A DNA stretch of 49,247 bases from Actinomycetales bacterium. Lineage in GTDB: Bacteria; Actinomycetota; Actinomycetes; Actinomycetales; CAWJMD01. The notes under the pieces are model-generated. The model saw only the letters and a list, made by a program, of their open reading frames with translations, was not told the DNA's origin and searched no databases. The stretch is taken from positions 1-49,247 of the forward strand of contig JBBQSN010000002.1 in NCBI GenBank assembly GCA_038213835.1, written 5' to 3'. Below are positions 7,148 to 45,267 of the stretch, one piece after another (the stretch's first letter is position 1; each line of letters starts with the position of its first letter). A program made the translations under genes and the position numbers.

Positions 7148-7366
7148 GACGGTGCCTCTCGGCCGGTGCCCTCGCCGGGTGCCTGCGCTGCCGGTCCGCA
7201 CCGACTCCGGTCAGAGGGTCGTCGCAGATCGTGGGGTGCTGCCGTGCCCCGGTGTCTACCGTCCCCGAGGGGTGCAGGCGGCCGGCCGCCGGTGGGCCGT
7301 GCTCAGAGGGTAGCCCCGCGCGCCCCGGGCTGTCGGCTTCCGCGCGATCGGTGGTAGAGACGTCCT

Positions 7367-9556: not shown

Positions 9557-10441
9557 TCACGACGCGGCCAGGGTCCGCTCGGCCCGCTCGACGACGTTCT
9601 GCAGCAGCATCGCCCGCGTCATCGGACCCACTCCGCCGGGGTTCGGCGACAGCCAGCCGGCGACGTCGGCCACGCCGGGGTCGACGTCGCCGCGTAGCCG
9701 CGCCTTGCCGTCGTCGCCCGCGACCCGCGAGACGCCGACGTCGAGTACCGCCGCGCCGCGACGGACCATGTCCGCGGTGATGAGCCCTGGCACCCCGGCC
9801 GCCGCGACGACGACGTCGGCGTGCCGCACGTGCTCCGCGAGGTCACGGGTCCCGGTGTGGCACAGCGTGACCGTGGCGTTGACGTCCTTGCGCGTGAGCA
9901 GCAGCCCGAGCGAGCGGCCCACGGTGATGCCACGGCCGACCACGCACACCTCGGCACCGCGCAGGTCGACGCCGTGCCGCACCAGCAGCTCGATGATGCC
10001 GCGCGGCGTGCACGGCAGCGGGGTGCTCATCGGCTCGGACACCCGCAGCACCAGGCGCCCCAGGTTGGTGGGGTGCAGTCCGTCGGCGTCCTTCTCGGGG
10101 TCGATCAGCTCGAGCACCCGCTGCTCGTCCAGGCCCTTCGGGAGCGGCAGCTGGACGATGTACCCGGTGCAGGACGGGTCGTCGTTGAGGCGGCGCACCG
10201 CCGCCTCGACCTCGTCCTGGGTGGCGGTGGCCGGCAGGTCCTCGCGGATGGACGCGATGCCCACCTGGGCGCAGTCCTTGTGCTTGCCGTTGACGTACCA
10301 GCGGCTGCCGGGGTCGTCCCCGACCAGGACGGTGCCGAGACCGGGGGCGACGCCGCGCTCGCGCAGGGCGGTGACCCGTCCGGTGAGGTCGGTCTTGATC
10401 GCGGCCGCCGTGGCGGTGCCGTCGAGGACCTGTGCGGTCAT
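9557..10441 (-). CDS. folD: bifunctional methylenetetrahydrofolate dehydrogenase/methenyl-THF cyclohydrolase
   Basis: [16 protein letters not shown].., [35 protein letters not shown] and [11 protein letters not shown] 10441 is codon 65 of ORF 9557..10633. Confidence 0.95.
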
Positions 10442-10496
10442 GGGTTGTGCCTCCGTGACGGGGTGGACGACGTCGGACGAGGAGCGGACGCCCTCG

Positions 10497-11813
<1,317 letters not shown>

Positions 11814-11854
11814 GTCGTCTCCTCGAAGTGGCTGTCTCGCGCAATCCGGTGACG

Positions 11855-11942
11855 GCGGGCCCAGGCGATCGACCCGTGGTCGTGCTGCACTGCCCGTCAC
11901 TCCCCGGTGGTGGACCACCTGAACGCCAGTCGTGACGGGGGC
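11855..11942 (-). promoter_or_regulatory. ZTP (pfl motif) riboswitch in the glyA-folD leader
   Basis: The minus-strand read is CCCCGUCACGACUGGCGUUCAGGUGGUCCACCACCGGGGAGUGACGGG..(25 nt)..GAUCGCCUGGGCC. P1 is CCCGUCAC/GUGACGGG and P2 is GGUGG/CCACC. The conserved ACUGGCG and CCGGGGAG elements and the 3' pseudoknot element CGCCUGGGC match the ZTP consensus almost base for base. It lies ~45 nt upstream of the glyA ATG. Confidence 0.8.
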
Positions 11943-11969
11943 AGGCTACCAAGCCGTACCCTCTGGCCC

Positions 11970-12818
11970 GTGCAGCCGTCCTCCTACGTCCTGGCGCTGT
12001 CGTGCCCCGACCGCCCCGGGATCGTCCACGCCGTATCCGGCGTCCTCGCCGACGCCGGCGGCAACATCACCGAGAGCGGGCAGTTCTCCGACCCCGGGAC
12101 CGGTCGGTTCCTGATGCGGGTGCAGGCCGACGTCGCTCTGGACCAGGAGGACCTGCACGCGCGGTTCGCCCCCGTGGCCGAGGGGTTCGACATGACCTGG
12201 CGGCTGGACGTCCTCGGCCGACCGATGCGCACCCTGGTGATGGTCAGCCGCGAGGGGCACTGCCTCAACGACCTGCTGTTCCGCCAGCGGGCCGGGTTGC
12301 TCCCCGTCGAGGTGCCGGCCGTGGTGTCCAACCACGAGGACCTGCGCCCGCTCGCCGAGTTCTACCAGGTGCCGTTCCACCACCTCCCCGTGGTCGCCGG
12401 CGACAAGGCCGGCGCCGAGGCCGCCCTGCTGCGCCTCGTCGAGGAGGTCGACGCCGAGCTCGTGGTGCTGGCCCGCTACATGCAGGTGCTCTCCGACGAC
12501 CTGTGCCGCTCGCTGGCCGGTCGCGCGATCAACATCCACCACTCGTTCCTGCCGTCGTTCAAGGGCGCCCGGCCGTACCACCAGGCCCGCGAGCGCGGCG
12601 TGAAGCTGATCGGCGCCACCGCGCACTACGTCACCGCGGACCTCGACGAGGGCCCGATCATCGAGCAGGGTGTCGAGCGGGTGGACCACACCATGGACGT
12701 CCCCGCGCTGCGGGCGATGGGCCAGGACATCGAGGCGCAGGTGCTCGCCCGGGCGGTGCGCTGGCACGCCGAGCACCGGGTGCTGCTGGACGGCACCCGC
12801 ACCGTCGTCTTCCGCTGA
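11970..12818 (+). CDS. purU: formyltetrahydrofolate deformylase
   Basis: N-terminal ACT domain (YVLALSCPDRPGIVHAVSGVLADAGGNI) plus a formyltransferase domain (INIHHSFLPSFKGARPY, ATAHYVT.DLDEGPII). GTG 11970 is preferred over GTG 11907 because the latter would overlap the riboswitch. Confidence 0.9.
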   Translation: MQPSSYVLALSCPDRPGIVHAVSGVLADAGGNITESGQFSDPGTGRFLMRVQADVALDQEDLHARFAPVAEGFDMTWRLDVLGRPMRTLVMVSREGHCLNDLLFRQRAGLLPVEVPAVVSNHEDLRPLAEFYQVPFHHLPVVAGDKAGAEAALLRLVEEVDAELVVLARYMQVLSDDLCRSLAGRAINIHHSFLPSFKGARPYHQARERGVKLIGATAHYVTADLDEGPIIEQGVERVDHTMDVPALRAMGQDIEAQVLARAVRWHAEHRVLLDGTRTVVFR

Positions 12819-12855
12819 GGGGAATGCCGCGCCGCTGCCCCGCGCTGGCCCCGGT

Positions 12856-13692
12856 ATGAGCATCCCGTTCACGACAACCGTCCGCGGCGTCACCGTCCCC
12901 ACCCTGGGCTTCGGCACCTGGGAGGTCGAGGGCGATGACGCCGTCGAGGGCGTCCGAGACGCGTTGGTCGCCGGCTATCGCCACGTCGACACCGCCTTCG
13001 CCTACGGCAACGAGGACCAGGTCGGCGAGGGCATCGCCGCCTCCGGCGTCCCTCGCGACGACATCTGGCTCACCACCAAGGTGATCCAGGACGAGTTCGA
13101 GCCGGACCAGGTGCGGTTCAGCGCCGAACGCTCGCTGCGCGCGCTGCGCACCGACCACCTCGACCTGCTGCTGCTGCACTGGCCGGTCGGCGGCGACCAG
13201 GTGGTGGTCGACGCGCTGGGCGCCCTCGTCGGGCTGCGTGAGCAGGGCTCGGTGCGCGAGATCGGCGTCTGCAACGTCCCGGCGAGCATGCTCGGACGGC
13301 TGCACGACGCGGTGCCGCAGCTGTTCGCCGACCAGGTGGAGTTCCACGCCCAGCTCGGCGCCGACCGGCTGCTCGAGGCGGCCCGGGTCCGAGAGGTGCT
13401 GGTCACCGCGTACAGCCCGCTCGGGAACGGCAAGGGCATCATCGAGGCCGACGTCGTGCAGGAGGTCGCGGCCGCCCGCGGCGCCACCCCCGCCCAGGTC
13501 GCGATCGCCTACCTGGCCCGGCAGGACGGCGTCACGGTGCTGCCGCGCTCGACCCACCCCGACCGCCGCCGGGAGAACCTCGCCGCGCTCGAGGTCGACC
13601 TCACCGCCGACGACGTCGCCGCGCTGGACACCCTGGCCGCCACCGGCCGTCGCGTGGTCGACCCGCCGTGGTCCCCCGACTGGGAGGACTGA
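12856..13692 (+). CDS. aldo/keto reductase
   Basis: LGFGTW, GYRHVDTAFAYGNE, LTTKV and LDLLLLHWP motifs. ATG 12856 is in frame with ORF 12670..13692. Confidence 0.9.
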   Translation: MSIPFTTTVRGVTVPTLGFGTWEVEGDDAVEGVRDALVAGYRHVDTAFAYGNEDQVGEGIAASGVPRDDIWLTTKVIQDEFEPDQVRFSAERSLRALRTDHLDLLLLHWPVGGDQVVVDALGALVGLREQGSVREIGVCNVPASMLGRLHDAVPQLFADQVEFHAQLGADRLLEAARVREVLVTAYSPLGNGKGIIEADVVQEVAAARGATPAQVAIAYLARQDGVTVLPRSTHPDRRRENLAALEVDLTADDVAALDTLAATGRRVVDPPWSPDWED

Positions 13693-19580: not shown

Positions 19581-21815
19581 TCAGCGGGTGAGGGCGGCCA
19601 GCACCTCGTTGAAGGTGGAGGACGGACGCATCACGGCGTCGACCTTGGCGCGGTCGGGCCGGTAGTAGCCGCCGATGTCGGCCGAGGAGCCCTGTACGGC
19701 GAGCAGCTCGGCGGTGATGGTCTCCTCGTTGTCGCCGAGCGCGTGGGCGACCTCGGTGAACGCTGCGGCCAGCTCCGGGTCGTCGGTCTGCTGCGCCAGC
19801 TCGCGGGCCCAGTACATGGCCAGGTAGAAGTGGCTGCCACGGTTGTCGATCTGACCGACCTTGCGTGCCGGAGAACGGTTCTCGTCGAGCAGCGTGCCGG
19901 TGGCGCGGTCCAGGGTGTCGGCCAGCACCTGGGTGCGGGCGTTGCCGGTGGTCTGCGCGAGGTGCTCGAAGCTGACCGCCAGGGCGAGGAACTCACCGAG
20001 GCTGTCCCAGCGCAGGTAGTTCTCCTTCACCAGCTGCTGGACGTGCTTGGGCGCCGAGCCACCGGCGCCCGTCTCGAACAGGCCACCGCCGTTGATGAGC
20101 GGGACGACCGACAGCATCTTCGCGCTGGTGCCGAGCTCGAGGATCGGGAACAGGTCGGTGAGGTAGTCGCGCAGCACGTTGCCGGTGACCGAGATGGTGT
20201 CCTCGCCGCGGCGGATCCGCTCCAGCGAGAACGCCATCGCCTCGGCCGGCGTCATGATCTCGATCGTCAGGCCGTCGGTGTCGTGCTCCGGCAGGTAGGC
20301 ACGCACCTTGGCGATCAGCTGGGCGTCGTGGGCGCGGTCGGCGTCGAGCCAGAACACGGCGGGGTCTCCGCTCGCGCGGGCCCGGGTCACGGCGAGCTTG
20401 ACCCAGTCGCGCACGGGGACGTCCTGGGTGCGGCACATCCGCCAGATGTCTCCCTCGGAGACCTCCTGCTCGAGCAGGGTGGCGCCGGAGCTGTCGACCA
20501 CCCGGACCGTTCCCGCAGAGGCGATCTCGAAGGTCTTGTCGTGGCTGCCGTACTCCTCGGCAGCGCGCGCCATCAGCCCGACGTTGGCCACCGACCCCAT
20601 CGTGGACGGGTCGAACGCTCCGTTCGCGCGGCAGTCGTCCAGGACGACCTGGTAGATGCCCGCGTAGCTGGAGTCGGGGATCACCGCGAGGGTGTCGGCC
20701 TCCGCGCCGTCCGGGCCCCACATGTGGCCGGAGGTGCGGATCATCGCGGGCATCGAGGCATCGACGATGACGTCGCTCGGCACGTGCAGGTTGGTGATGC
20801 CGCGGTCTGAGTCGACCATCGCCAGCGCCGGCCCGTCGGCCAGCTCGGCCTCGAACGAGGCCGTGATCGCGGCGCCTCCCTCCGCCTGGTCGAGGCCGGC
20901 GAGGATGCCGCCGAGGCCGTCGTTGGGGCTGAGACCGGCGGCCCTGAGCGCCGCGCCGTGCTCGGCGAAGGTCTGGGGGAAGAACGCCTTCACCACGTGG
21001 CCGAAGATGATGGGGTCGGAGACCTTCATCATCGTGGCCTTGAGGTGCACCGAGAACAGCACGTCCTCCTCCTTGGCCCGGGCGATCTGCGCCGTGAGGA
21101 ACTCGCGCAGGGCGGCGACCCGCAGCGCGGTGGCGTCGACGACGTCGCCGGCACCGACCGTCACGGCGTCCTTGAGCACCGTGGTGGTGCCGTCGGTCGC
21201 CTCGTGCTCGATCCGCAGCTCGCCGTCGGCCTCCACGACCGCGGAACGCTCGTTCGAGCGGAAGTCGTCGGCGCCCATGTGCGCGACGTTCGTGCGCGAG
21301 TCGGCCGACCACGCGCCCATCGAGTGCGGGTGGCTGCGGGCGTAGCTCTTCACCGACGCCGGGGCGCGGCGGTCCGAGTTGCCCTCGCGCAGCACCGGGT
21401 TGACTGCGCTGCCCTTGACCTTGTCGTACCGGGCGCGGACGTCCGACTCGTCGTCGGTGCCCGGGTCGTCCGGGTAGGCCGGCAGGTCGAAGCCCTGGCC
21501 CCTCAGCTCGGCGATCGCGGCCTTGAGCTGCGGTACCGAGGCCGACACGTTGGGCAGCTTGATGATGTTGGCCTCGGGCAGCTGCGCCAGCGCGCCGAGC
21601 TCGGCCAGGGCGTCCGGCACCTGCTGGTCGGCCGGCAGCCGGTCGGCGAAGGCACCGAGGATGCGGCCCGACAGCGAGATGTCCGGCGAGTCCACCCGCA
21701 CGCCCGCCGTCGACGCGTAGGCCGAGACGATCGGTAGTAACGAGTGCGTCGCCAGCGCAGGCGCCTCGTCCGTGTAGGTCCAGAGGATCCGACCATCGTG
21801 CGTGGCGTCGCTCAC
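19581..21815 (-). CDS. icd: NADP-dependent isocitrate dehydrogenase, monomeric type
   Basis: About 740 aa with [18 protein letters not shown] near the N-terminus, typical of monomeric IDH. GTG 21815 (GGAG 9 nt upstream) is preferred over the TTG 21854 used by the ORF track. Confidence 0.93.
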
Positions 21816-21949
21816 CAGGGTGCTCCGTTCGTCTCGAAAGTAGTTCGACGTCAAGATAACGGACCCGGCGATGGATGCCGGATCGCCGGTCCGACGCCTA
21901 CCGTGTGACCTGGATCCGGCAGCGGTGCCGGAGCGAGGGGGGTACTGAC

Positions 21950-22246
21950 GTGTTCCGCACCCTGGCCGACCGCCCGTGGATGCTGCTGATCCTGCTCGCC
22001 GGGATCGTCGTCGCGATCGTCACGGTGGTGGTCGTCGTCGCCATCAACGCGGGCGGCGCCCGCCGCCGGCCACGGCGACGGGGTGGGCCCGACACCGGTT
22101 ACTACTACGCCGCCGGCGGAGTCGGCTCCGCGGTCGGTGACTCCGGCTCGTCCGGGGACGACGGCCGTGGCTCCTCCTGCGGCGGCGGCTCCTCCTGCGG
22201 CGGCGGCTCGTCCTGCGGCGGGGGCGGCTGCGGCAGCAGCGGCTGA
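21950..22246 (+). CDS. small membrane-anchored Gly/Ser/Cys-rich peptide (candidate MNIO substrate, copy A)
   Basis: 98 aa from GTG 21950 (GAGGGGGG SD 8-10 nt upstream). The sequence is [82 protein letters not shown]. It has one TM helix, a poly-Arg patch and a 4-Cys Gly/Ser tail. Third-position GC is very high in this frame. Its architecture matches the peptide at 24649-24849. Confidence 0.6.
22169..22222 (+). repeat. 18-bp tandem repeat x3 encoding (GSSCGG)3
   Basis: GGCTCCTCCTGCGGCGGC occurs at 22169-22186 and 22187-22204 (identical), then GGCTCGTCCTGCGGCGGG at 22205-22222. It is in frame with the peptide CDS. Confidence 0.9.
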
Positions 22247-22297
22247 CCTGCGCTAGCGTCGGGATGCCCGACAGCCAGCCGTTCGAAGGGGAACCCG

Positions 22298-23287
22298 TTG
22301 AGCGCCACTCCCGTCAAGATCGCCGTCACCGGCGCCGCCGGCCAGATCGGTTACAGCCTGCTCTTCCGCCTCGCCAGCGGCGACCTGCTGGGGCCCGACA
22401 CCCCGGTCGAGCTGCGGCTGCTCGAGATCACGCCGGCCCTGAAGGCCCTCGAGGGCGTGGTGATGGAGCTGGCCGACTGCGCGGTCCCCCCCCTGGCCGG
22501 GGTCGAGATCGGTGACGACGCCGCGACCGTCTTCGACGGCGTGAACCTCGCCCTGCTGATCGGTGCCCGCCCCCGCGCCGCGGGCATGGAGCGCGGCGAC
22601 CTCCTGGAGGCCAACGGCGCGATCTTCACCGCGCAGGGCAAGGCCCTCAACTCGGTCGCGGCGGCCGACGTCCGGATCGGCGTCACCGGGAACCCGGCCA
22701 ACACCAACGCGCTGATCGCGATGACGAACGCCCCCGACATCCCCACCGAGCGGTTCTCGGCCCTGACCCGCCTGGACCACAACCGCGCCATCTCGCAGCT
22801 GGCCGCCAAGACGGGCGCGGCGGTCACCGACATCGCGAAGATGACGATCTGGGGCAACCACTCGGCCACCCAGTACCCCGACATCTTCCATGCCGAGATC
22901 GGTGGCCGGAACGCGGCCGATGTCGTCGACGACCAGGCCTGGCTCGAGGAGGACTTCATCCCGACCGTCGCCAAGCGCGGCGCCGCGATCATCGCCGCCC
23001 GCGGTTCGTCGTCGGCCGCGAGCGCCGCCTCGGCCACGATCGACGCCGCCCGCGACTGGCTCACCGGCAGCGCGGCCGACGACTGGGTCTCGATGGCCGT
23101 GCGCTCCGACGGCTCCTACGGCGTCCCCGAGGGCATCGTCTCCTCCTTCCCCGTCACCACCTCGGGAGGCGACTGGTCGATCGTCCAGGGCCTGGAGATC
23201 GACGACTTCTCCCGCGGTCGGATCGACGCCAGCGTCGCCGAGCTGCAGGAGGAGAGGGACGCCGTCACCCAGCTGGGCCTGATCTGA
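22298..23287 (+). CDS. mdh: malate dehydrogenase
   Basis: [22 protein letters not shown] Rossmann motif, [23 protein letters not shown] and WGNHS. TTG start with a GAAGGGGA SD. Confidence 0.95.
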
Positions 23288-23339
23288 GCGACGCCAGCGT
23301 TCCCGACCGGAACGGTCGGATCGGCCGTACGCTGGAGCC

Positions 23340-24215
23340 ATGGAGAGCTCACCGCTCGCCGGACGGGGGGTGGGGGTGGCCTGGAGGCCCCCGCTCGGTG
23401 ACTGGCTGGTCGAGCGGACCGCGGACACCACGCACCCGCTGCGCTTCAGCGAGGTGGTCGCCGAGAACGTCTCCCCCGCAACGCTTCCGCGCGCACTGAC
23501 CATGCTCGTCGCGCGCGGTGCCGTCGTGGTTCCGCACGGCGTCGGCCTCGGGCTCGCCGGGGCCGACCTGCCCGACGCGGGACGACTGGCGCACCTGGCG
23601 TCCCTGGCCGAGGTGCTCGGCGCCCCACTGATCAGCGAGCACGTCGCGTTCGTCCGGGCCGGCGCCCCGGGGCCGGACGACCTGCACTCCGACGTGCTGG
23701 AGGCCGGCCACCTGGTGCCCGCGCCGCGCACCCGGGAGTCGCTCGACGTCCTGGTCGAGAACGTCCGGGCGGCCCAGGACGCCCTGCCGGTCCCGCTGGC
23801 CCTGGAGAACGTGGCCGCCACCCTGGCCTGGCCCGAGGACGAGCTGGACGAGCCGGCGTTCCTCACCGAGCTGGCCGAGCGCACCGGCTGCTGGGTGCTG
23901 CTCGACGTCGCCAACCTGTACGCGACCTGCCAGGCGCACGGCGGCGACCCGCACGCGCTGCTGGCCCGGATGCCGCTGGAACGGGTCGCCTACGCGCACG
24001 TGGCCGGTGGCGCCGTGCAGCACGGGGTGTACCTCGACACACACGCCCATCCGGTCCCCGAGCCGGTGCTCGACCTGGTGAGCGACCTGCTGGAGCGCAC
24101 CGGGCCGTACGGGCCGCCGTTGCTGCTCGAGCGCGACGAGGACGTGTCGGTCGGCACCGTGGCCCCTGAGCTGGCCGTGCTGCGGGCCCGGCTCCCCCTG
24201 GCGGTGACCTCGTGA
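23340..24215 (+). CDS. DUF692/UPF0276 family protein = multinuclear non-heme iron oxidase (MNIO, MbnB/TglH/BufB-like)
   Basis: 291-aa TIM-barrel-type sequence carrying the family's ordered ligand motifs: PHGVGLGL, SEHVAF, ALENV, LLDVANLY, AHVAGG, YLDTHAHPV and LLERDED. Confidence 0.85.
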   Translation: MESSPLAGRGVGVAWRPPLGDWLVERTADTTHPLRFSEVVAENVSPATLPRALTMLVARGAVVVPHGVGLGLAGADLPDAGRLAHLASLAEVLGAPLISEHVAFVRAGAPGPDDLHSDVLEAGHLVPAPRTRESLDVLVENVRAAQDALPVPLALENVAATLAWPEDELDEPAFLTELAERTGCWVLLDVANLYATCQAHGGDPHALLARMPLERVAYAHVAGGAVQHGVYLDTHAHPVPEPVLDLVSDLLERTGPYGPPLLLERDEDVSVGTVAPELAVLRARLPLAVTS

Positions 24216-24649
24216 CCACGACGACGTCGGCCCGGGAACAGTTGCGGCGCAGGCAGTCCACTGTGCTCGCCGAGGTGATGGCCGGCCGGGTGCCGGACGG
24301 CTTCGACGAACGCACGACCTGGGTCACCGGCCTCGTGCTGCGGTCCAAGCGGCGGCGGACCGCCGTCGGGGCGCTGCCGTTCCTGGCCGCCGTGCCGGAC
24401 CTGCCCGAGCGGTTCGACGAGTACGCGCTGCAGAACCCGCCGGCCGGGTGCGCCCACGACGACGCCGACGCGTTCGCCGCCTGGGCGCAGGCGCGGGGAC
24501 TGCTGCAGGAGCGAGCGGCCCGGCGTGGCTGGCGCGAGCGGCAGGTCGAGCTCGGACGGCGACGGCTCGCCGTCGTCGGACGGGGACGCCGACGACGCCT
24601 CGTCATCGGCGTCGGCAGCTGGGTCTACGACATCGGGAGGGGAGCGTGA
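24212..24649 (+). CDS. hypothetical protein, candidate MNIO partner subunit
   Basis: 145 aa. The GTG start overlaps the MNIO stop (GTGA) and its stop overlaps the next ATG. It has high GC3 and an Arg-rich C-terminus. No family is recognisable by eye, and it is shorter than typical DUF2063 (MbnC/BufC-type) partners. Confidence 0.55.
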   Translation: MTTTTSAREQLRRRQSTVLAEVMAGRVPDGFDERTTWVTGLVLRSKRRRTAVGALPFLAAVPDLPERFDEYALQNPPAGCAHDDADAFAAWAQARGLLQERAARRGWRERQVELGRRRLAVVGRGRRRRLVIGVGSWVYDIGRGA

Positions 24650-24849
24650 TGGTCGTGATGGTGATGGTGCTGGCGGTCGTCGTCGGGGTCCTGGTCGTGA
24701 TGGTGGCTGTAGGAGGTGCGGTGGCGACGGCGAACCGGCGCGAGCGCGACCCGCACCGCCGCGGTGACGACGGCGGTGGCTGCGGTTCCGACGGCGGCAG
24801 CAGCTGCGGCGGCGGGGGTGGAGGCTGCGGGGGTGGCTGCGGCAGCTGA
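24649..24849 (+). CDS. small membrane-anchored Gly/Cys-rich peptide (candidate MNIO substrate, copy B)
   Basis: 66 aa: [69 protein letters not shown] 24649 overlaps the upstream TGA (TGATG; GTG 24646 is also in frame). A GGGAGGGGAG SD lies 5-14 nt upstream. It has one TM helix, a basic patch and a 4-Cys tail. Confidence 0.6.
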   Translation: MVVMVMVLAVVVGVLVVMVAVGGAVATANRRERDPHRRGDDGGGCGSDGGSSCGGGGGGCGGGCGS

Positions 24850-24888
24850 TCCCCGCACCACCGCAGAGCCGGCGCGAGCCGCCGCCGA

Positions 24889-25245
24889 TCAGGCGCCCGT
24901 GGGCACCAGCCGGGAGACCACGAGCAGGAGCAACGCGAGCAGCAGGCAGGAGGAGACGTCGAGCGTCCGGGAGCGGACCACCAGGGGACCCACGGCACCG
25001 GCGGGGAGGAACGCCCGGGCGAGCGCGACCACGACGAGCAGGCCGGCGAGCACCAGGACCGCCAGGGCGGTGCCGGACCACGTCGCCGTCGCGAGGACCG
25101 CCAGCAGGCCGAGGGTCAGGACCGCGAACCAGGCCCGCCGCCAGCGCCCGCGCCCGCCCTCGGGCTCAGGCACGCCGGCCCGCGCCGTCGTTCGGCCCCC
25201 GCCTGGTCGACATCGCTCCGTCCCTCCGCTGGTCTGCCCGCACAC
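24889..25245 (-). CDS. DUF3017-like small membrane protein
   Basis: Two or three TM segments (WFAVLTLGLLAVLATA.., LAVLVLAGLLVVVALA.., LLLALLLLVV). It lies downstream of purH, as in other actinobacteria. The start is uncertain: GTG 25245 or GTG 25173. Confidence 0.55.
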   Translation of the reverse strand: MCGQTSGGTERCRPGGGRTTARAGVPEPEGGRGRWRRAWFAVLTLGLLAVLATATWSGTALAVLVLAGLLVVVALARAFLPAGAVGPLVVRSRTLDVSSCLLLALLLLVVSRLVPTGA

Positions 25246-25327
25246 CGTAGTGGGCCGTGCCGGACTGGCCGTCGCGGCACTCGGGGAGGCGTGCCGACGT
25301 CACGGTCCACTGCCCGGCACGTCGCGC

Positions 25328-26923
25328 TCAGTGGGCGAAGTGCCGGGTCCCTGTCGTGTAGAGGCTGGTGCCCGCGGCACGAGCAGCCTCGAACACCTCC
25401 TCGTCGCGCACCGAGCCGCCGGGCTGCACCACGGCCCGCACGCCGGCGTCGAGCAGCACCTGCAGGCCGTCGGCGAACGGGAAGAACGCGTCCGAGGCGG
25501 CGACCGAGCCGCGGGCCCGCTCCTCGCCGGCCCGCGAGACGGCCAGCCGGCACGAGTCGACCCGGTTGACCTGCCCCATGCCGATCCCGACGGTGGCACC
25601 GCCCCTGGCCAGCAGGATGGCGTTGGACCGCACCGAACGCACTGCACGCCAGGCGAAGGCGAGGTCGGCGAGGACGGCGTCGTCGGCCGGCTCCCCCGCT
25701 GCCAGCGTCCAGGCCGAGGGGTCGTCGCCGTCGGCGTCGATCCGGTCGACGACCTGCACGAGGACGCCGCCCGAGACCTGCCGGATCTCGGTCGGGTCGC
25801 GGCGGTAGCCGTCAGGGAGCTCCAGCAGGCGGATGTTCTTCTTGCGCGAGAGCAGCGCGAACGCGTCGGCCTCGAACGACGGCGCGACGACGACCTCGGT
25901 GAAGACGTCGGCCACCTGCTCGGCCATCGCCAGGGTGACCGGGCGGTTCGCCGCGATCACGCCGCCGAACGCCGAGACCGGGTCGCACGCGTGTGCTCTC
26001 GCGTGCGCCTGGGCGATGTCGGACCCGACCGCGATGCCGCAGGGGTTGGCGTGCTTGATGATCGCGACGGCGGGCTCGTCGAAGTCGTGGGCGGCGCGCA
26101 GGGCGGCGTCGGCGTCGACGTAGTTGTTGTACGACATCGCCTTCCCGTGCAGGACCGTGCCCTGCGCGATACCGGGCGTGGCGTTCTTCTCGACGTACAG
26201 CGCGCCGCCCTGGTGCGGGTTCTCGCCGTAACGGAGCACGTCGGCGCGCTCCAGCGCCAGCCCTGTGAAGGCGGGCCAGCCACCGGTCACGTCGTCGTCG
26301 AGGTTCGCGGCGCACCAGCTGGCCACGCCGGCGTCGTAGGCGGCGGTGTGGGCGAACGCGAGGGCGGCCAGACGGCGGCGGGCGGACAGGGCGAACCCGC
26401 CGGCGCCGGCGGCCTCGAGCACGGCCGGGTAGGCGGCCGGGTCGACGACGACGGCCACGCTGGCGTGGTTCTTCGCCGCCGCCCGCACCATCGAGGGCCC
26501 TCCGATGTCGATCTGCTCGACGACGTCCTCCTCGCCGGCCCCGGACGCGACCGTCTCGGCGAAGGGGTAGAGGTTGCCGACCACGAGGTCGAACGGCTCG
26601 ACCTCGAGGTCGCGCAGCTGCCGTTCGTGGTCGGGGTTGCGGCGGTCGGCCAGGATCCCGGCGTGCACGCGCGGGTGCAGCGTCTTGACCCGTCCGTCCA
26701 GGCACTCGGGGAAGCCGGTGAGGTCCTCGACCTTCGTGACCGGCACGCCGGCCTCGGCGATCCGGGCCGCGGTCGAGCCGGTGGACACGATGGCCACGCC
26801 CGCCGCGTGCAGCCCGACCGCGAGCTCGACCAGCCCGGTCTTGTCGTAGACCGAGACCAGGGCGCGTCGCAGCGGCCGGTGGCCGGCGTCGGTGCGCGTG
26901 CTGGCGTCGGGAGTCGTCGTCAC
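25328..26923 (-). CDS. purH: bifunctional AICAR formyltransferase / IMP cyclohydrolase
   Basis: [44 protein letters not shown] and the C-terminal SDAFFPF..GGS.RD motifs. GTG 26923 overlaps the purN stop (GTGA). Confidence 0.95.
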
Positions 26924-27573
26924 GGGAGGGTGACCCTTCTGTCGTCGATGGTCCAGCCGGTCCGGGCCATCTGGCCCACGGTGTCGACGAGCACGGCGCG
27001 CTCGACGGTCTTGATCCGCTCGTGCAGGGACTCGACGGTGTCGTCGTCGGCCACCTCGACGGCACCCTGGGCGATGATCGCGCCGGTGTCGACCCCCTGG
27101 TCGACGAGGAGGAGCGTGCACCCCGTGACCTTGACGCCGTACGCCAGGGCGTCCGCCGGGCCGCTCGTCCCGGGGAAGGACGGCGACAGCGCCGGGTGGG
27201 TGTTGACCACGCGACCGGGGAAGCGGCCGAGGAAGGCCGGCCCGGTGAGCTTCATGAAGCCGGCCAGCACCACGAGGTCGGGCTCGTGCGCGGCGACGGC
27301 CTCGGCGAGCGCCGCGTCCCAGGCGGCCCGGTCGGCGTGGTCCCCGAGCCGGAGCACGAACGACGGTACGCCCTGGCGTCGGGCGCGGGCCACGCCCTCG
27401 GTGCCCTCGCGGTCGGCCCCCACCGCCACCACGGCGGCGCCGAAGGACGGGTCGGCGGCGGCGTCCAGGAGCGCCTGCAGGTTGGTCCCGGCCCCGGAGA
27501 CGAGCACGACGAGGCGGGCCGGACGACCGGGTGCGGCGAGCGCCGGCACGCGGATGAAAGACTCGGCCGTCAC
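26920..27573 (-). CDS. purN: phosphoribosylglycinamide formyltransferase
   Basis: [38 protein letters not shown] and [13 protein letters not shown]. The start is GTG 27573 (alternative GTG 27549). Confidence 0.93.
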
Positions 27574-27633
27574 GGGTGCTGACGATATCGGCAGCCGGGC
27601 ACTCCCCGAGCACGGGACCGAGGAGGTACGACC

Positions 27634-28041
27634 GTGAGCGGCATCACCAAGACACCCGCACCACTCGCTTCGGCCGCGGCCGCGGGACCCGTCCGGCTGT
27701 TCGCGCTGTGCCTGGTCGCCGCCGTGGTGGCCTCGGGGCTGCCGCTGCCCTACTCCCTGGGTGCCACGGTGTTCCTGGTCGTGGGTGCGGTGGCAGGGGT
27801 CCGAGCCCTGGTGCTGCTGGTGCGCACGGGCGGCCGCCGGGGCGTGGTCCTGCTGGTGTCCGGCCTGCTGGGGCTGTGCGCGCTGATGCTGCTGGGCGAG
27901 CTCGCCCGACTGGCGTTCTGGCCCGCGTACTCCGACTACGAGCAGTGCCGCAGCGGCGCGATCACCGAGAGCGGCGCCGACGCGTGCGAGGCCGAGTTCA
28001 GGAACCGGATCGTGTCCGTGCTGCTGCCACCCACGCGCTGA
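27634..28041 (+). CDS. hypothetical small membrane protein
   Basis: 135 aa with 3-4 hydrophobic helices and high GC3. Divergent from purN. Its 3' end overlaps the convergent perM-like gene by 44 nt. Confidence 0.5.
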
Positions 28042-29236
28042 CCCGGCGACCCGCCAGCAGCGCACCGATCAGAGCCCCGGCGAGCACCTCGCCCCCCACG
28101 ACCGCCCCGGTCAGCAGCGGCGCGGGCCCCATCTCGGCCATCCGCCCCGGCCCGAGAGAGCCGGAGGCGGCGGCGCTGAGCACCAGCACCGCGACGGTGA
28201 CGGCGAGGACCACCAGGAACAGGTCGACACCCAGGGCGCGCCACCCGGCCTCGGACCGGCGGCGGGCGACGGTCCACCCGCCGAGCGCCCCGCAGGCCAC
28301 CACGACGAGCACCAGCAGGAGTCCGACGAGCGGGTCGTGCGTGGTCCCGGGCTCGGGCAGCCCGCCGAGGACGGGGACCGCCGGCAGCGGGCCGAGCGTG
28401 GTGCCACCCACCTGCACGACGGTGTCGGACCCCACGGCGAAGCCGGGGCCGGCGAGGTACGCGACCCCCCAGACCACCAGGACGGGGAGCACCGTGAGCT
28501 GGAGCAGCACCAGGCCGACGTGCCCGGCGGCGCCGGGGGCCAGTGCCTCGTGCACGGCCAGGACGCGGTCGCGGCCCGTGACCAGGGCCACCGCGACCAG
28601 CACCGTCCCGGCGACGCCGAGAGCGGCCAGGCAGCGCACCGACGCGGTGGCGAGCACGCCCGCGCGCTCCCGCAGCGGCCCAGCGGGCCACAGGTCCGGC
28701 ACCCGCGGGAGCCCGGCGGCGAGGCCTGCGACCAGTACGGCGCCGAGAACGGCGCGGGCCGCGAGCGGTCGCGCCGCCTCCGAGCCGGCCACGACGGCGG
28801 CGAGGCCGGTGAGCGCGGCGTAGGTGGACACGAAGGTGCCGAGTCCGGCGGCGAGGTCCCGGCGCGGCACCGGGTTCCGCACGGCCCGCAGCGCCTCGGT
28901 CACGCGGCGTCCCCCGACCCAGCAGAGCGCGGCCGCCAGGGCGGTGAGGCCGAGGGGCACCAGCGTGATCTCCCCGGACGGGAGCGCGAGCGGTGCGCCG
29001 TGCCCGAGCACGTGGACGTCGACGCCCACCCTGGCCGCCTCGGACCAGCGCGCACCGACCCGGGCCGACGTGAGCCAGACCAGCATCACCGGGACGACCG
29101 AGAACACCAGGCCGGCGACGCACGCCTGCACCGCCGCCAGCGCCCCCACGAGGTACGGCGACTGCAGCGCCGGGCGCTCTGGCAGCTGGCCGTCGACGAC
29201 CGGGGTCGGACGCGGCGCTCGGGTCAGCAGGCTCAT
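27998..29236 (-). CDS. perM: polytopic membrane protein, PerM-like (DUF6350 family)
   Basis: About 412 aa with roughly 10 TM helices. Its position immediately upstream of purN-purH and downstream of sucCD mirrors M. tuberculosis perM (Rv0955)-purN-purH. ATG 29236 is codon 16 of ORF 27998..29281. The assignment rests mainly on synteny and topology. Confidence 0.6.
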   Translation of the reverse strand: MSLLTRAPRPTPVVDGQLPERPALQSPYLVGALAAVQACVAGLVFSVVPVMLVWLTSARVGARWSEAARVGVDVHVLGHGAPLALPSGEITLVPLGLTALAAALCWVGGRRVTEALRAVRNPVPRRDLAAGLGTFVSTYAALTGLAAVVAGSEAARPLAARAVLGAVLVAGLAAGLPRVPDLWPAGPLRERAGVLATASVRCLAALGVAGTVLVAVALVTGRDRVLAVHEALAPGAAGHVGLVLLQLTVLPVLVVWGVAYLAGPGFAVGSDTVVQVGGTTLGPLPAVPVLGGLPEPGTTHDPLVGLLLVLVVVACGALGGWTVARRRSEAGWRALGVDLFLVVLAVTVAVLVLSAAASGSLGPGRMAEMGPAPLLTGAVVGGEVLAGALIGALLAGRRVSAWVAAARTRSGS

Positions 29237-29421
29237 CGCGTCCCATCCTCGCCCGGACCGTGCGCGGGGTGGCGCTCCCACGCCGCCCGCCTCCGAGTTC
29301 GGTGCGAACGGCAGTCCTCAGCCCTCGACGACCTCACGGACGCGCTCGACCTCGTCGTGGCGCGGCGGTCCCGGCCTCGTCGAGACTTGCCGTGGCGACC
29401 CCGAGGGCGCGGGACGCCTCG

Positions 29422-29994
29422 TCACCCGCGCGCCCGCCACTCCTCGGCGAGCAACGCGTAGCCGTAGCCGTCCATCCACTCGCCGCTACGGTGCAGGGAC
29501 TCGTGCACCGCGTGCGTCTCGCGACGCATGCCGAGCCGCTCCATCAGCCGCCACGACGGGGTGTTGTCGGCGAAGCACAGCGCCTCGACCCGCCGCACCC
29601 CGAGGTCCTCGAAACAGAGCCGGAGCAGCTCGGTGACCGCCTCGGTGGCGTAGCCGCGGCCGCCGACCCCGGGCGCGAAACACCAGCCGAGCTCGGCCTG
29701 GGTGGCCACCGCCTGCTCCTTGACCTCGGCCTGGGCCCAGGCGTCCTGGACCCGCACCATGAGGTCACCCACGACCTCGCCCTCGAGCTCGACCATGAGC
29801 GTGCTGGTGAGCCGGTGCGGCGCGAGGAACTGCTCCCGGAACGTGGGGAGGTCGGCCCCGGCGCTGCTGATCCAATGGTTGACGTCGTCGAGCCGCCGGT
29901 AGGACCAGGCCGCCTCGACGTCGTCCGGGGCGACCGGCCGCAGCACCAGCCGCTCGGTGCGCACCGGCCACCCGAGGTCCGCCAGGGACGTCAC
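29422..29994 (-). CDS. GNAT-family N-acetyltransferase (RimJ/RimL-like)
   Basis: RTERLVLRPVAPDD N-terminus and acetyl-CoA motif GVGGRGYATEAV. Begins 16 nt downstream of sucD. Confidence 0.85.
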   Translation of the reverse strand: MTSLADLGWPVRTERLVLRPVAPDDVEAAWSYRRLDDVNHWISSAGADLPTFREQFLAPHRLTSTLMVELEGEVVGDLMVRVQDAWAQAEVKEQAVATQAELGWCFAPGVGGRGYATEAVTELLRLCFEDLGVRRVEALCFADNTPSWRLMERLGMRRETHAVHESLHRSGEWMDGYGYALLAEEWRARG

Positions 29995-30010
29995 CTGAGC
30001 ACCCGCGATC

Positions 30011-30898
30011 TCACAGCGACTGCATGATCTCCCGCATCAGGTCCGCGGCCTCGCTCGGCGTCTTGCCGACCTTGACCCCGGCCGCCTCGAGGGCGTCCTT
30101 CTTGGCCTGGGCGGTGCCGGACGAGCCGGAGACGATCGCGCCGGCGTGGCCCATCGTCTTGCCCTCGGGGGCGGTGAAGCCGGCGACGTAGCCGACGACC
30201 GGCTTGGTCACGTGGTCCTTGATGTAGGCGGCCGCGCGCTCCTCGGCGTCGCCGCCGATCTCGCCGATCATCACGATCGCCGCTGTCTCGGGGTCGTTCT
30301 CGAACGCCTCGAGGCAGTCGATGTGCGTGGTGCCGATGATCGGGTCGCCGCCGATGCCGACGGCGGTGGAGAAGCCGAAGTCCCGCAGCTCGTACATCAT
30401 CTGGTAGGTCAGCGTGCCGGACTTGCTGACCAGCCCGACCTTGCCGGGACCGGAGATGGTGGCCGGGATGATGCCGGCGTTGGACTGCCCGGGGCTGATC
30501 AGGCCGGGGCAGTTCGGGCCGATCACCCGGGTGCTGCCGGAGGCCTTGGCGTGCGCCCAGAGCTCGGCGCTGTCCTTGACCGCCACGCCCTCGGTGATGA
30601 CCACGGCGAGCGGGACGCCGGCGTCGATCGCCTCCACCGCGGCCGCCTTGGTGAAGGCGGCCGGGACGAAGATGACCGACACGTCGGCGCCGGTCTTCTC
30701 GACCGCCTCGGCCACGGTGCCGAACACCGGGACCTCGACACCGCCGTCGAAGGTGACGGTCTCGCCGGCCTTGCGGGGGTTCACGCCGCCGACCACGTTC
30801 GTGCCGGAGGCCAGCATCCGCTGGGAGTGCTTCATGCCCTCCGAGCCCGTCATGCCCTGGATGATGACCTTGCTGTCCTTGGTGAGGAAGATCGCCAT
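30011..30898 (-). CDS. sucD: succinate--CoA ligase subunit alpha
   Basis: [25 protein letters not shown] and GHAGA (phosphohistidine loop). Confidence 0.97.
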
Positions 30899-33804: not shown

Positions 33805-36204
33805 ATGGTGACCAGGCCCCCCGTCCAGGACGTCGACGACTCCGACCTCGAGGTATCCCCGCCCAAGCGCTCCGCCGCCGGTGTGCCGGCCGTGCTGAAG
33901 GCCCTCAAGATGGGCGTGGACCAGATGGGCGTGGTGCGCACCGCGCGCACCCTGCTCCGGGTGAACCAGGACGACGGCTTCGACTGCCAGGGCTGCGCGT
34001 GGCCCGACCCGCCGGCGGGGCACCGGCACACGGCCGAGTTCTGCGAGAACGGGGCCAAGGCCGTGGCCGAGGAGGCCACGGTGCGCCGCGTCGGCCCGGA
34101 GTTCTTCGCCCAGCACCCGATCTGCGACCTCGCCGAGCGCAGCGACTACTGGCTCGGCCAGCAGGGTCGGCTCACCGACCCGATGGTCCGACGCTCGGGA
34201 TCGGCCCACTACGAGCCGATCTCGTGGGACGACGCCTTCGCGATGGTGGGCAGGCACCTCAATGCCCTCGGCTCGCCGGACGAGGCCGTCTTCTACACCT
34301 CCGGCCGTACCTCCAACGAAGCCGCCTTCGCCTACCAGCTGTTCGCGCGCGCCTACGGCACCAACAACCTGCCGGACTGCTCGAACATGTGCCACGAGTC
34401 CACGTCGGTCGCGCTGGCGGAGACGATCGGCATCGGCAAGGGCAGCGTCTCGCTCGAGGACGTGCACGAGGCCGAGCTGATCGTCATCACCGGCCAGAAC
34501 CCGGGCACGAACCACCCGCGGATGCTGTCCGCGCTGGAGAAGGCGAAGAAGAACGGCGCCAGGATCCTCGCGGTCAACCCGTTGCGCGAGGCCGGGTTGA
34601 CGAGGTTCCACAACCCGCAGACCCCCCAGGGCCTCGTGACCGGTACGACGCTCGCCGACCTGCACCTGCCGGTGCGGGTCAACGGCGACCTCGCGCTGTT
34701 CCAGGCGATCGGGCACCTCGTCCTCACCGCCGAGGACGCCGCGGCCGCGGCCGGTCGCCCCGGCGCCGTCGCCGACCTGGACTTCATCGCCCGGCACACC
34801 ACGGGTTTCGAGGCCTGGGCCGACCACGTGCGCGCGCTCGACTGGGACGTCGTGCTGGAGTCCACCGGCCTGCCGATCGACCAGATCGAGGACGCCGCAG
34901 CGATGTTCCTGGAGGCAGGGTCCGTCGTGCACTGCTGGGCGATGGGCATCACCCAGCACAAGAACGCCGTCGGCACGATCAAGGAGTTCGTCAACCTCGC
35001 TCTGCTCACCGGCGACATCGGCCGTCCCGGTGCCGGTCTGTGCCCTGTGCGCGGCCACTCCAACGTCCAGGGCGACCGGACGATGGGCATCTGGGAGCGC
35101 CCGCCCGTGTGGTTCCTCGACGCCCTTCAGCGCGAGTTCGACTTCGACCCGCCGCGCGAGAACGGCCTCGACACCGTCGACTCGATCCGCGCGCTGCGCG
35201 ACGGGCTGGCGCACGTGTTCGTCGGCATGGGAGGAAACTTCGTCTCCGCCACGCCCGACACCGGGGTCACCGAGGGCGCCCTGCACAAGGCCGCCCTCAC
35301 CGTCCAGGTCTCGACCAAGCTGAACCGCTCGCACGCCGTGTGCGGCGAGGAGGCGTTGATCCTGCCCGCTCTCGGGCGCACCGAGATCGACCGCACCGGG
35401 GGGACCGAGCAGAAGGTCACGGTCGAGGACTCGATGTCGTCGGTGCACGCCTCGCGCGGCCGGCTGGAGCCCGCCTCGAGGAACCTGCGGTCCGAGGTCG
35501 ACATCGTCTGCCGGATCGCGGAGGCCACCCTCGGGGACCGGTACGGCATCGAGTGGTCGGCCTTCCGCACCGACTACACCGCGGTGCGCCACCGCATCGC
35601 CCAGGTCGTGCCGGGCTGCGAGGCCTATGACGAGAAGATCCAGCGCCCGGGGGGTTTCGTCCTCCCGCACCCGCCGCGCGACAACAGGAGCTTCCCGACG
35701 CCGGTCGGCAAGGCGGTCTTCTCGGTGATCCCCGTCGGGGTGCTGCAGGTCCCCGAGGGTCGGTTGCTGCTGCAGACCCTGCGCAGCCACGACCAGTTCA
35801 ACACCACGATCTACGGTCTGGACGACCGCTACCGCGGCATCCACCAGGGGCGGCGGGTGGTGTTCGTCCACCCCGAGGACGTGCGCGACCTCGGGCTGGA
35901 GGACGGCTCGATGGTCGACGTCGTCAGCGAGTGGGAGGACGGCTCGGAACGCACCGTCCGCGACTTCCGCGTCGTGCCGTACTCGACGCCTCGCGGCTGC
36001 GCGGCGGCGTACTTCCCGGAGACCAACCCGCTGATCCCGCTCGACTCCACCGCCGACCACAGCAACACCCCGACGTCCAAGTCGGTGATCGTGCGGCTCG
36101 TCGCACCGGCGGTGGCCGGCGAGCACTCGCACCCCGGCCACGGCGACCCCACCGGCTCGGACGAGAGCCACAAGAGCCACCCGCAGCCGCCGCACATGAG
36201 CTGA
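33805..36204 (+). CDS. FdhF/YdeP-family molybdopterin oxidoreductase
   Basis: 799 aa with N-terminal motifs GFDCQGCAWPDP, TAEFCENGAKAVA and CSNMCHEST. Molybdopterin-oxidoreductase and C-terminal molybdopterin-binding domains follow. Confidence 0.9.
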   Translation: MVTRPPVQDVDDSDLEVSPPKRSAAGVPAVLKALKMGVDQMGVVRTARTLLRVNQDDGFDCQGCAWPDPPAGHRHTAEFCENGAKAVAEEATVRRVGPEFFAQHPICDLAERSDYWLGQQGRLTDPMVRRSGSAHYEPISWDDAFAMVGRHLNALGSPDEAVFYTSGRTSNEAAFAYQLFARAYGTNNLPDCSNMCHESTSVALAETIGIGKGSVSLEDVHEAELIVITGQNPGTNHPRMLSALEKAKKNGARILAVNPLREAGLTRFHNPQTPQGLVTGTTLADLHLPVRVNGDLALFQAIGHLVLTAEDAAAAAGRPGAVADLDFIARHTTGFEAWADHVRALDWDVVLESTGLPIDQIEDAAAMFLEAGSVVHCWAMGITQHKNAVGTIKEFVNLALLTGDIGRPGAGLCPVRGHSNVQGDRTMGIWERPPVWFLDALQREFDFDPPRENGLDTVDSIRALRDGLAHVFVGMGGNFVSATPDTGVTEGALHKAALTVQVSTKLNRSHAVCGEEALILPALGRTEIDRTGGTEQKVTVEDSMSSVHASRGRLEPASRNLRSEVDIVCRIAEATLGDRYGIEWSAFRTDYTAVRHRIAQVVPGCEAYDEKIQRPGGFVLPHPPRDNRSFPTPVGKAVFSVIPVGVLQVPEGRLLLQTLRSHDQFNTTIYGLDDRYRGIHQGRRVVFVHPEDVRDLGLEDGSMVDVVSEWEDGSERTVRDFRVVPYSTPRGCAAAYFPETNPLIPLDSTADHSNTPTSKSVIVRLVAPAVAGEHSHPGHGDPTGSDESHKSHPQPPHMS

Positions 36205-36206
36205 GG

Positions 36207-36276
36207 CCACCGGGCGACCCGCCGACCGGGCGACCGGGCGACCGGGCGACCGGGCGACCGGGCGACCGGGCGACGG
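36207..36276. repeat. 8-bp tandem repeat (CGACCGGG)x6 plus degenerate flanking units
   Basis: There are six perfect CGACCGGG units at 36223-36270. Degenerate units (CACCGGG, CGACCCGC) lie 5' and a partial unit (CGACGG) lies 3'. The array is intergenic, starting 3 nt after the ydeP stop and ending 57 nt before the next ATG. Confidence 0.9.
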
Positions 36277-45184: not shown

Positions 45185-45190
45185 GACCGG

Positions 45191-45229: not shown

Positions 45230-45267
45230 TGCTCAGTCGTGCGGACGTGCTGGGTCGTGCGGGTGGA

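Follow-up and report, generated by a model that had tools for sequence, protein, structure and literature searches.

A Cys/Gly-tailed membrane peptide gene upstream of mdh as a candidate second substrate of an actinobacterial MNIO enzyme

Does a 98-codon open reading frame (ORF) that ends in a short Cys/Gly repeat encode a real peptide, and does this peptide belong to the MNIO (DUF692) enzyme encoded downstream of it? The locus that raises this question lies on a contig of an Actinomycetales bacterium (assembly GCA_038213835.1, contig JBBQSN010000002.1, positions 1 to 49,247, forward strand). The window, i.e. the whole stretch of 49,247 nucleotides that was analysed, has a G+C content of 73%. 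The ORF is named pepA and the peptide gene at 24649-24849 is named pepB, and coordinates are those of the 49-kb window unless a related locus is named. The comparative data show pepA to be a real gene; the best-supported reading, which we infer and hold to be somewhat probable, is that its predicted membrane peptide serves as a second substrate of this MNIO.

The coding sequence of pepA and its parts are as follows.

21935-21942, + strand: Shine-Dalgarno-like sequence GAGGGGGG, 7 nt before the GTG, its GAGGGGG core kept in relatives
21950-22246, + strand: pepA coding sequence, 98 amino acids, GTG start, TGA stop at 22244-22246
21977-22045, + strand: core of the predicted transmembrane (TM) helix, residues 10-32 (uncharged to residue 37), best 19-residue window with a mean Kyte-Doolittle value of 3.41
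22061-22081, + strand: basic patch RRRPRRR directly after the helix, the putative positive-inside determinant
22100-22120, + strand: aromatic-Ala/Gly motif YYYAAGG (family motif [WYF][WYF]xxGG), from alignments
22169-22243, + strand: Cys/Gly tail, 25 residues, 4 Cys
22169-22225, + strand: 18-bp tandem repeat, 3.2 copies, encoding (GSSCGG)3, found with Tandem Repeats Finder (TRF)

Coordinates and sequence agree with the original prediction of a 98-residue ORF on the MNIO strand with one TM helix, the RRRPRRR patch, a Gly/Ser/Asp linker and a four-Cys tail. The linker separates the aromatic motif from the tail, the C-terminal end reads (GSSCGG)3-GGCGSSG with exactly four Cys, and the single hydrophobic segment leaves no room for a further domain in the 98 residues. 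TRF also bears out that three of the four Cys come from the 18-bp repeat (unit GGCTCCTCCTGCGGCGGC, 3.2 copies, 94% matches, score 100); the start predicted for the repeat holds, but its end had been placed at 22222 and the TRF array reaches 22225. The array is one of only three in the window with a TRF score of at least 70. Its first two units share the same DNA sequence, from which the third departs at two synonymous sites.

The composition of the window sets this ORF apart. Among 398 six-frame stop-to-stop ORFs of at least 60 amino acids, a tail with at least three Cys and at least 50% Gly/Ser occurs in only two, pepA and pepB, both on the + strand and both with a TM helix upstream of the tail, and none of 100 dinucleotide-matched simulated windows contained an ORF with such a tail. 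The G+C content by codon position is codon-like with a high third position (0.69/0.69/0.92 in pepA; 0.70/0.33/1.00 in its TM part).

Comparison with relatives carries the argument further. Exact-sequence look-ups of the window MNIO and mdh returned nothing on record; relatives were reached through the closest mdh proteins, with identities of 91-94%, which gave six independent loci, L015-L020, in Nocardioidaceae-like genomes and metagenome-assembled genomes, making seven loci with the window (L025 is the same contig as L019). All six carry a pepA orthologue between icd and mdh, which in L015, L016, L019 and L020 had already been annotated by gene callers. The full-length orthologues are 56-62% identical to pepA, and the ratio of nonsynonymous to synonymous differences (pN/pS) is 0.23-0.24 in close pairs and 0.5-0.8 in distant pairs. 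In the 25 tail codons of the seven orthologues, variable sites at codon positions 1, 2 and 3 number 3, 0 and 16, respectively; codons are swapped among TCC/TCG and GGC/GGG/GGT/GGA with SSCGGG unchanged, the tail Cys are invariant and no second-position change occurs. Cys is also the residue that MNIOs of most families modify. Indels are multiples of three, including the loss of one exact 18-bp unit. RRRPRRR or QRRPRRR is found in six of the seven related loci (two frameshift-repaired copies counted), and the aromatic motif appears in relatives and family members as GWYGAG, SWWAGG or YFGDGG.

The GTG of pepA aligns with ATG or GTG starts in the relatives, with GAGGGGG conserved before it. An alternative ATG start at 21875 was rejected because the upstream extension is not conserved as coding, the GTG aligns with all starts of the relatives and GAGGGGGG lies 7 nt upstream of it. 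The antisense, +1 and +2 frames were likewise discarded, as they contain stops or lose conservation. In-frame conservation and third-position variation thus show that this low-complexity ORF is a real and constrained gene rather than GC-rich noise, as had been argued at the outset, and that it is very probably translated. The first protein database search did not list the window pepA among called proteins, so automatic annotation may overlook it.

The number of repeat units varies among the orthologues, as given below in GSSCGG-type units and total Cys.

Window: 3 units, 4 Cys
L016: 3 units, 5 Cys
L017 (repaired): 3 units, 4 Cys
L019: 3 units, 5 Cys
L020, second copy: 3 units, 5 Cys
L015: 2 units, exactly 18 bp fewer, 4 Cys
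L018 (repaired): 2 units, exactly 18 bp fewer, 4 Cys
L020, first copy: without the full GSSCGG array, 3 Cys

The expectation that slippage could change the Cys count in units of one is borne out, as relatives differ by exactly 18 bp, that is one GSSCGG unit and one Cys. Units 2 and 3 of L016 are identical, like units 1 and 2 of the window, and the units of L017, L019 and L020 differ mutually at several sites, nearly all synonymous, with two Gly-to-Ser changes in L019. This combination of unit identity and synonymous divergence indicates that slippage or conversion acts on the array, and also that recent duplication alone does not explain the peptide repeat, which selection maintains. In the pepB tail there are two Cys in L017 and four in the window, L018 and L019.

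The second part of the question concerns the MNIO, whose gene stands with its neighbours in the following order.

19581-21854, - strand: icd
22298-23287, + strand: mdh (malate dehydrogenase), a housekeeping gene between pepA and the MNIO gene (NF003916, E 2.1e-164)
23340-24215, + strand: MNIO (DUF692) enzyme (PF05114, E 1.2e-66)
24212-24649, + strand: 145-residue partner protein, with a 4-nt overlap with the MNIO stop
24649-24849, + strand: pepB, 66-residue TM-anchored Cys/Gly peptide, its ATG overlapping the partner TGA by 1 nt
From 24889, - strand: DUF3017, then purH

The gene for pepA lies on the same strand as those for the MNIO and its partner, 1.1 kb upstream (1093 nt from the pepA stop to the MNIO start), with mdh and its own promoter-like motif in between. 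The order pepA-mdh-MNIO is constant in the window clade (the window and L015-L020), so that pepA and the MNIO-partner cassette are co-present in all seven loci. The outgroups N. terrisoli and N. panacis have neither an MNIO nor a Cys/Gly-tail ORF within 5 kb of mdh, and there mdh is directly followed by DUF3017-folD-purH. The arrangement in L020 is particularly informative: two tandem pepA-type genes (80 and 99 residues; 4386-4927 of that locus) lie upstream of mdh, and no pepB follows the partner, where an unrelated 343-residue protein (7468-8499) without a Pfam or NCBIfam match is found instead.

Relatives of the MNIO from species-representative genomes and metagenomes (L001-L014 and L026-L028) provide a comparison outside the clade. 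At every actinobacterial MNIO locus retrieved, the partner adjoins the enzyme and a TM-anchored small peptide is adjacent; those of L001, L002, L003, L006 and L026 have SCGGG-type tails with 4-7 Cys, as in pepA. A 56-residue anchored peptide with a single Cys (SGASCG) follows the partner in the Mycobacterium-type loci L004, L005 and L007 (7264-7434), and the distant relatives in Acidimicrobiales and Myxococcota have large proteins ending in SSCGGGGGCGGGGGCGGGGGCS. Neither mdh nor icd is near the MNIO in any of these loci, so the pepA-mdh-MNIO order is specific to the window clade. A metagenome scan with peptide alignment A1 gave 600 stretches matching GGGS[SG]CGGG, none of which passed tblastn confirmation, probably on account of the low-complexity query; a second metagenome scan, with the MNIO as query, added only L026-L028. 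Taken together, the conserved synteny, the co-absence in the outgroups, the L020 arrangement and the likeness to MNIO-adjacent peptides argue, on balance, for pepA being a substrate of the MNIO.

Three gene arrangements in related loci are recorded here as side observations. L016 contains, between pepA and mdh (4734-4913), an extra 59-residue peptide with a helix and a basic patch and without Cys, which may be a truncated second copy. In L015 (6240-7379) a single fused gene of 379 residues was called for the MNIO and partner, and the pepB tail reads in an Ala-rich frame, which probably reflects indel errors in the metagenome assembly rather than a real fusion. In L003 (Tsukamurella ocularis, 6889-7188) the gene for the anchored Cys/Ser/Gly peptide lies between those for the MNIO and partner, not after the partner.

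The original prediction treated the two peptides of the window as copies of one design. The architecture does match: each has its TM helix at the N-terminus, followed by a basic patch and finally a Cys/Gly tail. Close paralogy did not survive the comparison, as each is a separately conserved subtype. The pepA subtype is marked by an N-terminal FRxLxDxPW, the aromatic-AGG motif and a fixed ...GGGGCGSSG end, and the pepB subtype, with orthologues found in L017-L019, by RHERDPHRRGDDGG, a shorter length and the lack of the aromatic-GG motif. The CGS end that had been stated for both holds only loosely and is no conserved feature: pepA ends in CGSSG and the pepB orthologues in CGGG or CS. The MNIO-adjacent peptide of L026 scores 72 bits against pepA and 44 bits against pepB, and pepA is closer to the peptides beside MNIO genes in other actinobacteria than to the pepB of its own window. 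From this better score and the shared aromatic-GG motif, pepA appears to be the more canonical of the two peptide types.

Beyond these loci, pepA belongs with an unnamed family of hypothetical proteins of 70-130 residues that share its architecture and occur in Streptomyces, Nocardia, Mycobacterium, Mycolicibacterium, Pseudofrankia and Paenibacillus. A phmmer search with pepA alone returned P0001-P0005 (E 2.6e-6 to 2.3e-3), and profile searches gave 40 and 173 matches with a best E-value down to 1e-17; the 173, which reached E<=0.001 when 1.84 billion representatives were searched exhaustively with a profile, are mostly full-length small stand-alone proteins of 70-110 residues. The features of this family are all present in pepA: the N-terminal helix, the Arg/Lys-rich patch, the aromatic-GG motif, the C-terminal (S/G)C(G)n repeats and the length. 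Many members have a His beside the Cys (GHSCGGG, HHGSSCGG). No curated family matched pepA above its cut-off. Membership in the YxzE-like putative bacteriocins (PF25184) was rejected, pepA scoring 14.7 bits against a cut-off of 40 bits, and 4 of 21 family members match that model (best E 2.2e-4).

The orientation of the peptide in the membrane was predicted from its charges. In pepA, six Lys/Arg fall within the 15 residues after the helix and two before it. Of 58 family members, 57, with every pepA and pepB orthologue among them, have more Lys+Arg in the 15 residues that follow the helix (mean 5.6) than ahead of it (mean 0.4), and an excess after the helix is also seen in 122 of 128 further matches; the profile that collected the family included the basic patch, which makes this count partly circular. 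The excess nevertheless holds throughout the MNIO-adjacent peptides, whose collection did not depend on the profile. Charged residues follow the positive-inside rule in membrane proteins, and by this rule the Lys/Arg excess predicts that the peptide is oriented N-out/C-in and its tail lies in the cytoplasm, which is likely. A signal peptide was rejected for pepA, as the hydrophobic stretch (23-28 residues) is too long and is followed by the six Arg of RRRPRRR, so that by the same inference it would not be cleavable. No signal-peptide or membrane-anchor match was seen for the MNIO.

Two conserved elements in the spacers bear on how pepA is expressed.

21898-21904, + strand: invariant CTACCGT (TACCGT, -10-like), about 45 nt before the pepA start, from an alignment of the icd-pepA spacer in 7 genomes
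22250-22262, + strand: invariant GCGCTAGCGTCGG (TANNNT-like TAGCGT, -10-like), about 40 nt before the mdh start and 4 nt after the pepA stop

CTACCGT is a candidate -10 element of pepA or part of a divergent icd control region. GCGCTAGCGTCGG is conserved in the window, in L015-L020 and in the outgroups L023/L024, which have no pepA, and probably serves mdh, as its promoter or as some other regulatory element. As mdh intervenes with its own promoter-like motif, co-transcription of pepA and the MNIO gene is not implied, and pepA probably has its own promoter. Consensus scans for sigma-70 promoters and terminators on the + strand of 21700-25400 gave no sites, and the promoter statements rest on the conserved TANNNT-like motifs. 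Between mdh and the MNIO gene, a spacer of 52 nt contains an inverted repeat, CCGACCG-GAA-CGGTCGG (23303-23319), which has no T-tract and could act as a terminator or attenuator of mdh.

The partner was assigned to PME-type 2 from the gene order and from the precomputed PF26136 (SCO6045_C) annotation of its orthologues, which are 74-82% identical to it. A profile search of the partner against PDB sequences gave nothing meaningful, and a single-sequence AlphaFold2 model reached a pLDDT of 56. The MNIO itself is nearest, among NCBIfam models, to BufB (165 bits, cut-off 310) and then to HvfB (119 bits, cut-off 360), and among solved structures to TglH (8hci) and a DUF692 protein of unknown function. 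The cassette sits among genes of core metabolism (folD, glyA, purU-like, icd, mdh, purH and sucD; 9557-13692 and 25328-30898), and no metal-homeostasis, transporter or protease gene lies close to it; the neighbours, genes of central metabolism and of purine and folate metabolism, give no functional hint. Elsewhere in the window, about 8.8 copies of an 8-bp unit, GGGCGACC, stand in tandem at 36205-36274 (TRF score 119), directly 3' of the stop of a 799-residue ORF (33805-36204); this array is intergenic and its unit is not a multiple of three. A perfect 13-bp tandem repeat of 3.5 copies, GGTGCTGCTGGGT, lies at 45189-45233.

The general idea of Cys/Ser/Gly-tailed MNIO substrates is already published, and the single-helix form described here differs from it; a literature search found no paper describing such single-helix peptides. 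The closest described kind are the TIGR04222 membrane proteins, found mostly in Actinomycetota, which have Ser/Gly-rich Cys tails and occur with an MNIO and a PME-type 2 partner, as described by bioinformatics only (Antoine et al. 2025, Microb Genom, PMC12452194). pepA shares with them the phylum, a membrane anchor and an unstructured, low-complexity, Ser/Gly-rich C-terminal region with interspersed Cys; the two also have in common a gene that often follows the MNIO gene, a short non-DUF2063 partner and the existence of orphans without an MNIO. TIGR04222-like proteins of distant MNIO relatives have SSCGGGGGCGGGGG tails. The differences are equally clear: TIGR04222 proteins have several TM segments and a large extracytoplasmic domain, whereas pepA and pepB consist of one helix and a tail in 66-98 residues; the charge-based prediction places the pepA tail in the cytoplasm, whereas TIGR04222 tails are predicted to be periplasmic (PMC12452194); and pepA lies upstream of a housekeeping gene, not beside the MNIO gene. 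The TIGR04222 hidden Markov model (43-bit cut-off) did not match pepA or pepB at E<=1; as a positive control, the L008 protein matched at 125.6 bits, and that of L010 reached 39 bits, under the cut-off. Candidate substrates in that study were the genes immediately before or after the MNIO gene (PMC12452194). Such a collection would have missed a peptide gene in third place of the operon or on the far side of a housekeeping gene.

Oxazolin (Buf_EGKCG, HvfA) resembles pepA in its short tandem units with one Cys followed by Gly in each and a copy number that varies among homologues; it also depends on an MNIO with an obligatory partner, HvfB being the second-best NCBIfam match of the window MNIO. 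Oxazolin precursors contain repeated EGKCG motifs (PMC12452194), in contrast to the GSSCGG of pepA; they are Sec-exported, belong to Pseudomonadota and have a DUF2063 (PME-type 1) partner. An assignment of pepA to the oxazolins was rejected because of its repeat and its lack of a signal peptide. The bufferins (BufA1, DUF2282; BufA2) share Cys as the target, a product that is a copper-chelating protein and not a small cleaved peptide (PMC11626156), and BufB as the nearest curated model. They are, however, folded, Sec-exported, periplasmic proteins with conserved Cys positions, from operons with DUF2063 and DoxX, none of which is found here; there is no DUF2282 or DUF2063 match, and pepA, which is predicted to have no cleavable signal, was not assigned to them.

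Members of the unnamed family are nearer in build: P0005 of Streptomyces sp. TRM70350, P0001 of Nocardia cyriacigeorgica and P0141 of Mycobacterium sp. OAS707 have the helix, the Arg-rich patch, [WY][WY]xxGG, a Gly/Ser/Asp/His linker and the Cys tail. They differ in being annotated as hypothetical and in lacking a nearby MNIO in the two contexts examined, and the pepA orthologues add FRxLxDxPW and the fixed C-terminal end.

Several of these findings, and some others, weigh against pepA being an MNIO substrate. Its co-presence and co-absence with the cassette concern one clade and two outgroups, effectively one evolutionary event, and the mdh between them keeps a promoter-like motif that predates pepA. 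The MNIO falls far below the BufB and HvfB cut-offs, so its chemistry could differ; no metal-homeostasis gene is present in the local neighbourhood of the cassette; and the TIGR04222 tails are predicted to be periplasmic rather than cytoplasmic (PMC12452194). In L027 (about 2120-2296) Tyr replaces the single Cys of the Mycobacterium-type peptides (SGASYG), which questions Cys as an obligatory target in that subgroup. The Streptomyces member has no MNIO or partner within 8 kb on either side, and the Nocardia member none in the 8 kb upstream, its contig ending about 370 bp downstream, so the family can exist without an adjacent MNIO, and one member comes from Paenibacillus. Furthermore, pepA in L017 and L018 carries a single-base frameshift each, in a G/C run between helix and tail.

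The family observations suit, in the first place, the explanation that pepA is a real small membrane protein that works alone, its unmodified Cys/Gly(/His) tail binding metal or taking part in thiol redox, and the nearness of the MNIO being incidental or loosely functional. The 173 representative clusters of mostly single small proteins, the separate promoter-like elements of pepA and mdh and the fact that one third of the genomes with TIGR04222 proteins have no MNIO (PMC12452194) are also consistent with it. Such an independent role is possible but rather unlikely, as the Streptomyces and Nocardia negatives cover the gene flanks and not the rest of these genomes, pepA comes and goes with the cassette across seven loci and two outgroups, the pepA-type genes of L020 are the only Cys/Gly peptides near its MNIO, and other actinobacterial MNIO-adjacent peptides carry the pepA-type tail together with the aromatic motif.

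The frameshifts raise a different explanation, that pepA is a decaying or dispensable duplicate of a former MNIO substrate gene, drifting fast and lost in some lineages. Absence or disruption of the ORF in relatives that keep mdh and icd had been named beforehand as evidence against a gene; the frame is intact in most of them and broken in L017 and L018. The L018 assembly has many broken genes, icd and the MNIO gene included, and its frameshift is likely an assembly error; L017 is otherwise intact, and its frameshift could be genuine. Repair of one base in either copy restores full read-through with all motifs intact, and both lesions lie in G/C runs. Decay would also account for an identity far below that of mdh, for the pN/pS of the distant pairs and for the absence of pepA from the called proteins that the search gave. 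Small membrane peptides, however, normally evolve fast in their TM and linker residues, and the strong third-position bias of tail variation and the low pN/pS of the close pairs make decay improbable.

The remaining alternative, an untranslated accidental frame in 73% G+C DNA with a GC-rich microsatellite, could appeal to the commonness of long chance ORFs at this G+C and to the lack of a curated family match, but it is already contradicted by the comparative data (in-frame conservation, synonymous variation and in-frame indels, a conserved start codon and Shine-Dalgarno-like sequence, orthologues found by gene callers in four loci, alternative frames with stops or without conservation), as well as by the empty simulated windows, and it deserves hardly any credence.

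If pepA is a second MNIO substrate, as preferred here, the most likely mechanism would be the following. The product would be a single-pass membrane peptide with a very short N-terminus facing outward, and the RRRPRRR patch would hold its C-terminal part on the cytoplasmic face, where the cytoplasmic MNIO and its short partner could reach the tethered tail; in this Nocardioidaceae lineage pepA would then be the second substrate of the pair and, by sequence, the more canonical one. BufB/BufC convert Cys to 5-thiooxazole with a loss of 4 Da each, giving products that bind copper (PMC11626156), and HvfB/HvfC put six copper-binding 5-thiooxazoles on oxazolin (bioRxiv 10.64898/2026.07.17.739211); Ser/Gly-rich Cys tails have been proposed as substrates of an MNIO with a PME-type 2 partner in Actinomycetota (PMC12452194). 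By analogy with BufB/BufC and HvfB/HvfC, the MNIO and partner would oxidise the Cys of each Cys-Gly unit in the pepA and pepB tails to a 5-thiooxazole-type heterocycle, a four-electron oxidation costing 4 Da per Cys. This chemistry is put forward tentatively, in view of the model scores given above.

The product would be a membrane-tethered, uncleaved, metal-binding tail, with its number of ligands set by the repeat copy number, and slippage by 18 bp would shift the modifiable Cys by one. A metal-binding role is plausible, if short of probable, and the His beside Cys in many family members fits it. The fullest form of this proposal would be a class resembling ribosomally synthesised and post-translationally modified peptides that is never cleaved or exported, in which the N-out/C-in anchor replaces the leader, the MNIO and partner make metal ligands of a slippage-tunable (GSSCGG)n on the inner membrane face, and orphan members in Actinobacteria are modified in trans by a single MNIO locus. 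This extended form is speculative and, taken as a whole, unlikely.

MNIO enzymes are rapidly gaining importance as a source of new peptide chemistry, and their actinobacterial branch with Cys/Ser/Gly-tailed membrane proteins is the largest group lacking a known modification and function. With one helix and a tail, pepA and pepB represent the smallest form of such a candidate substrate, which makes them handy for co-expression and mass spectrometry. A cytoplasmic tail would set the system apart from the periplasmic bufferins, and this topology is testable. As the best-supported reading has it, pepA doubles the candidate substrates at the locus and suggests that substrates can sit outside the obvious operon, where mining restricted to MNIO-adjacent genes would miss them.

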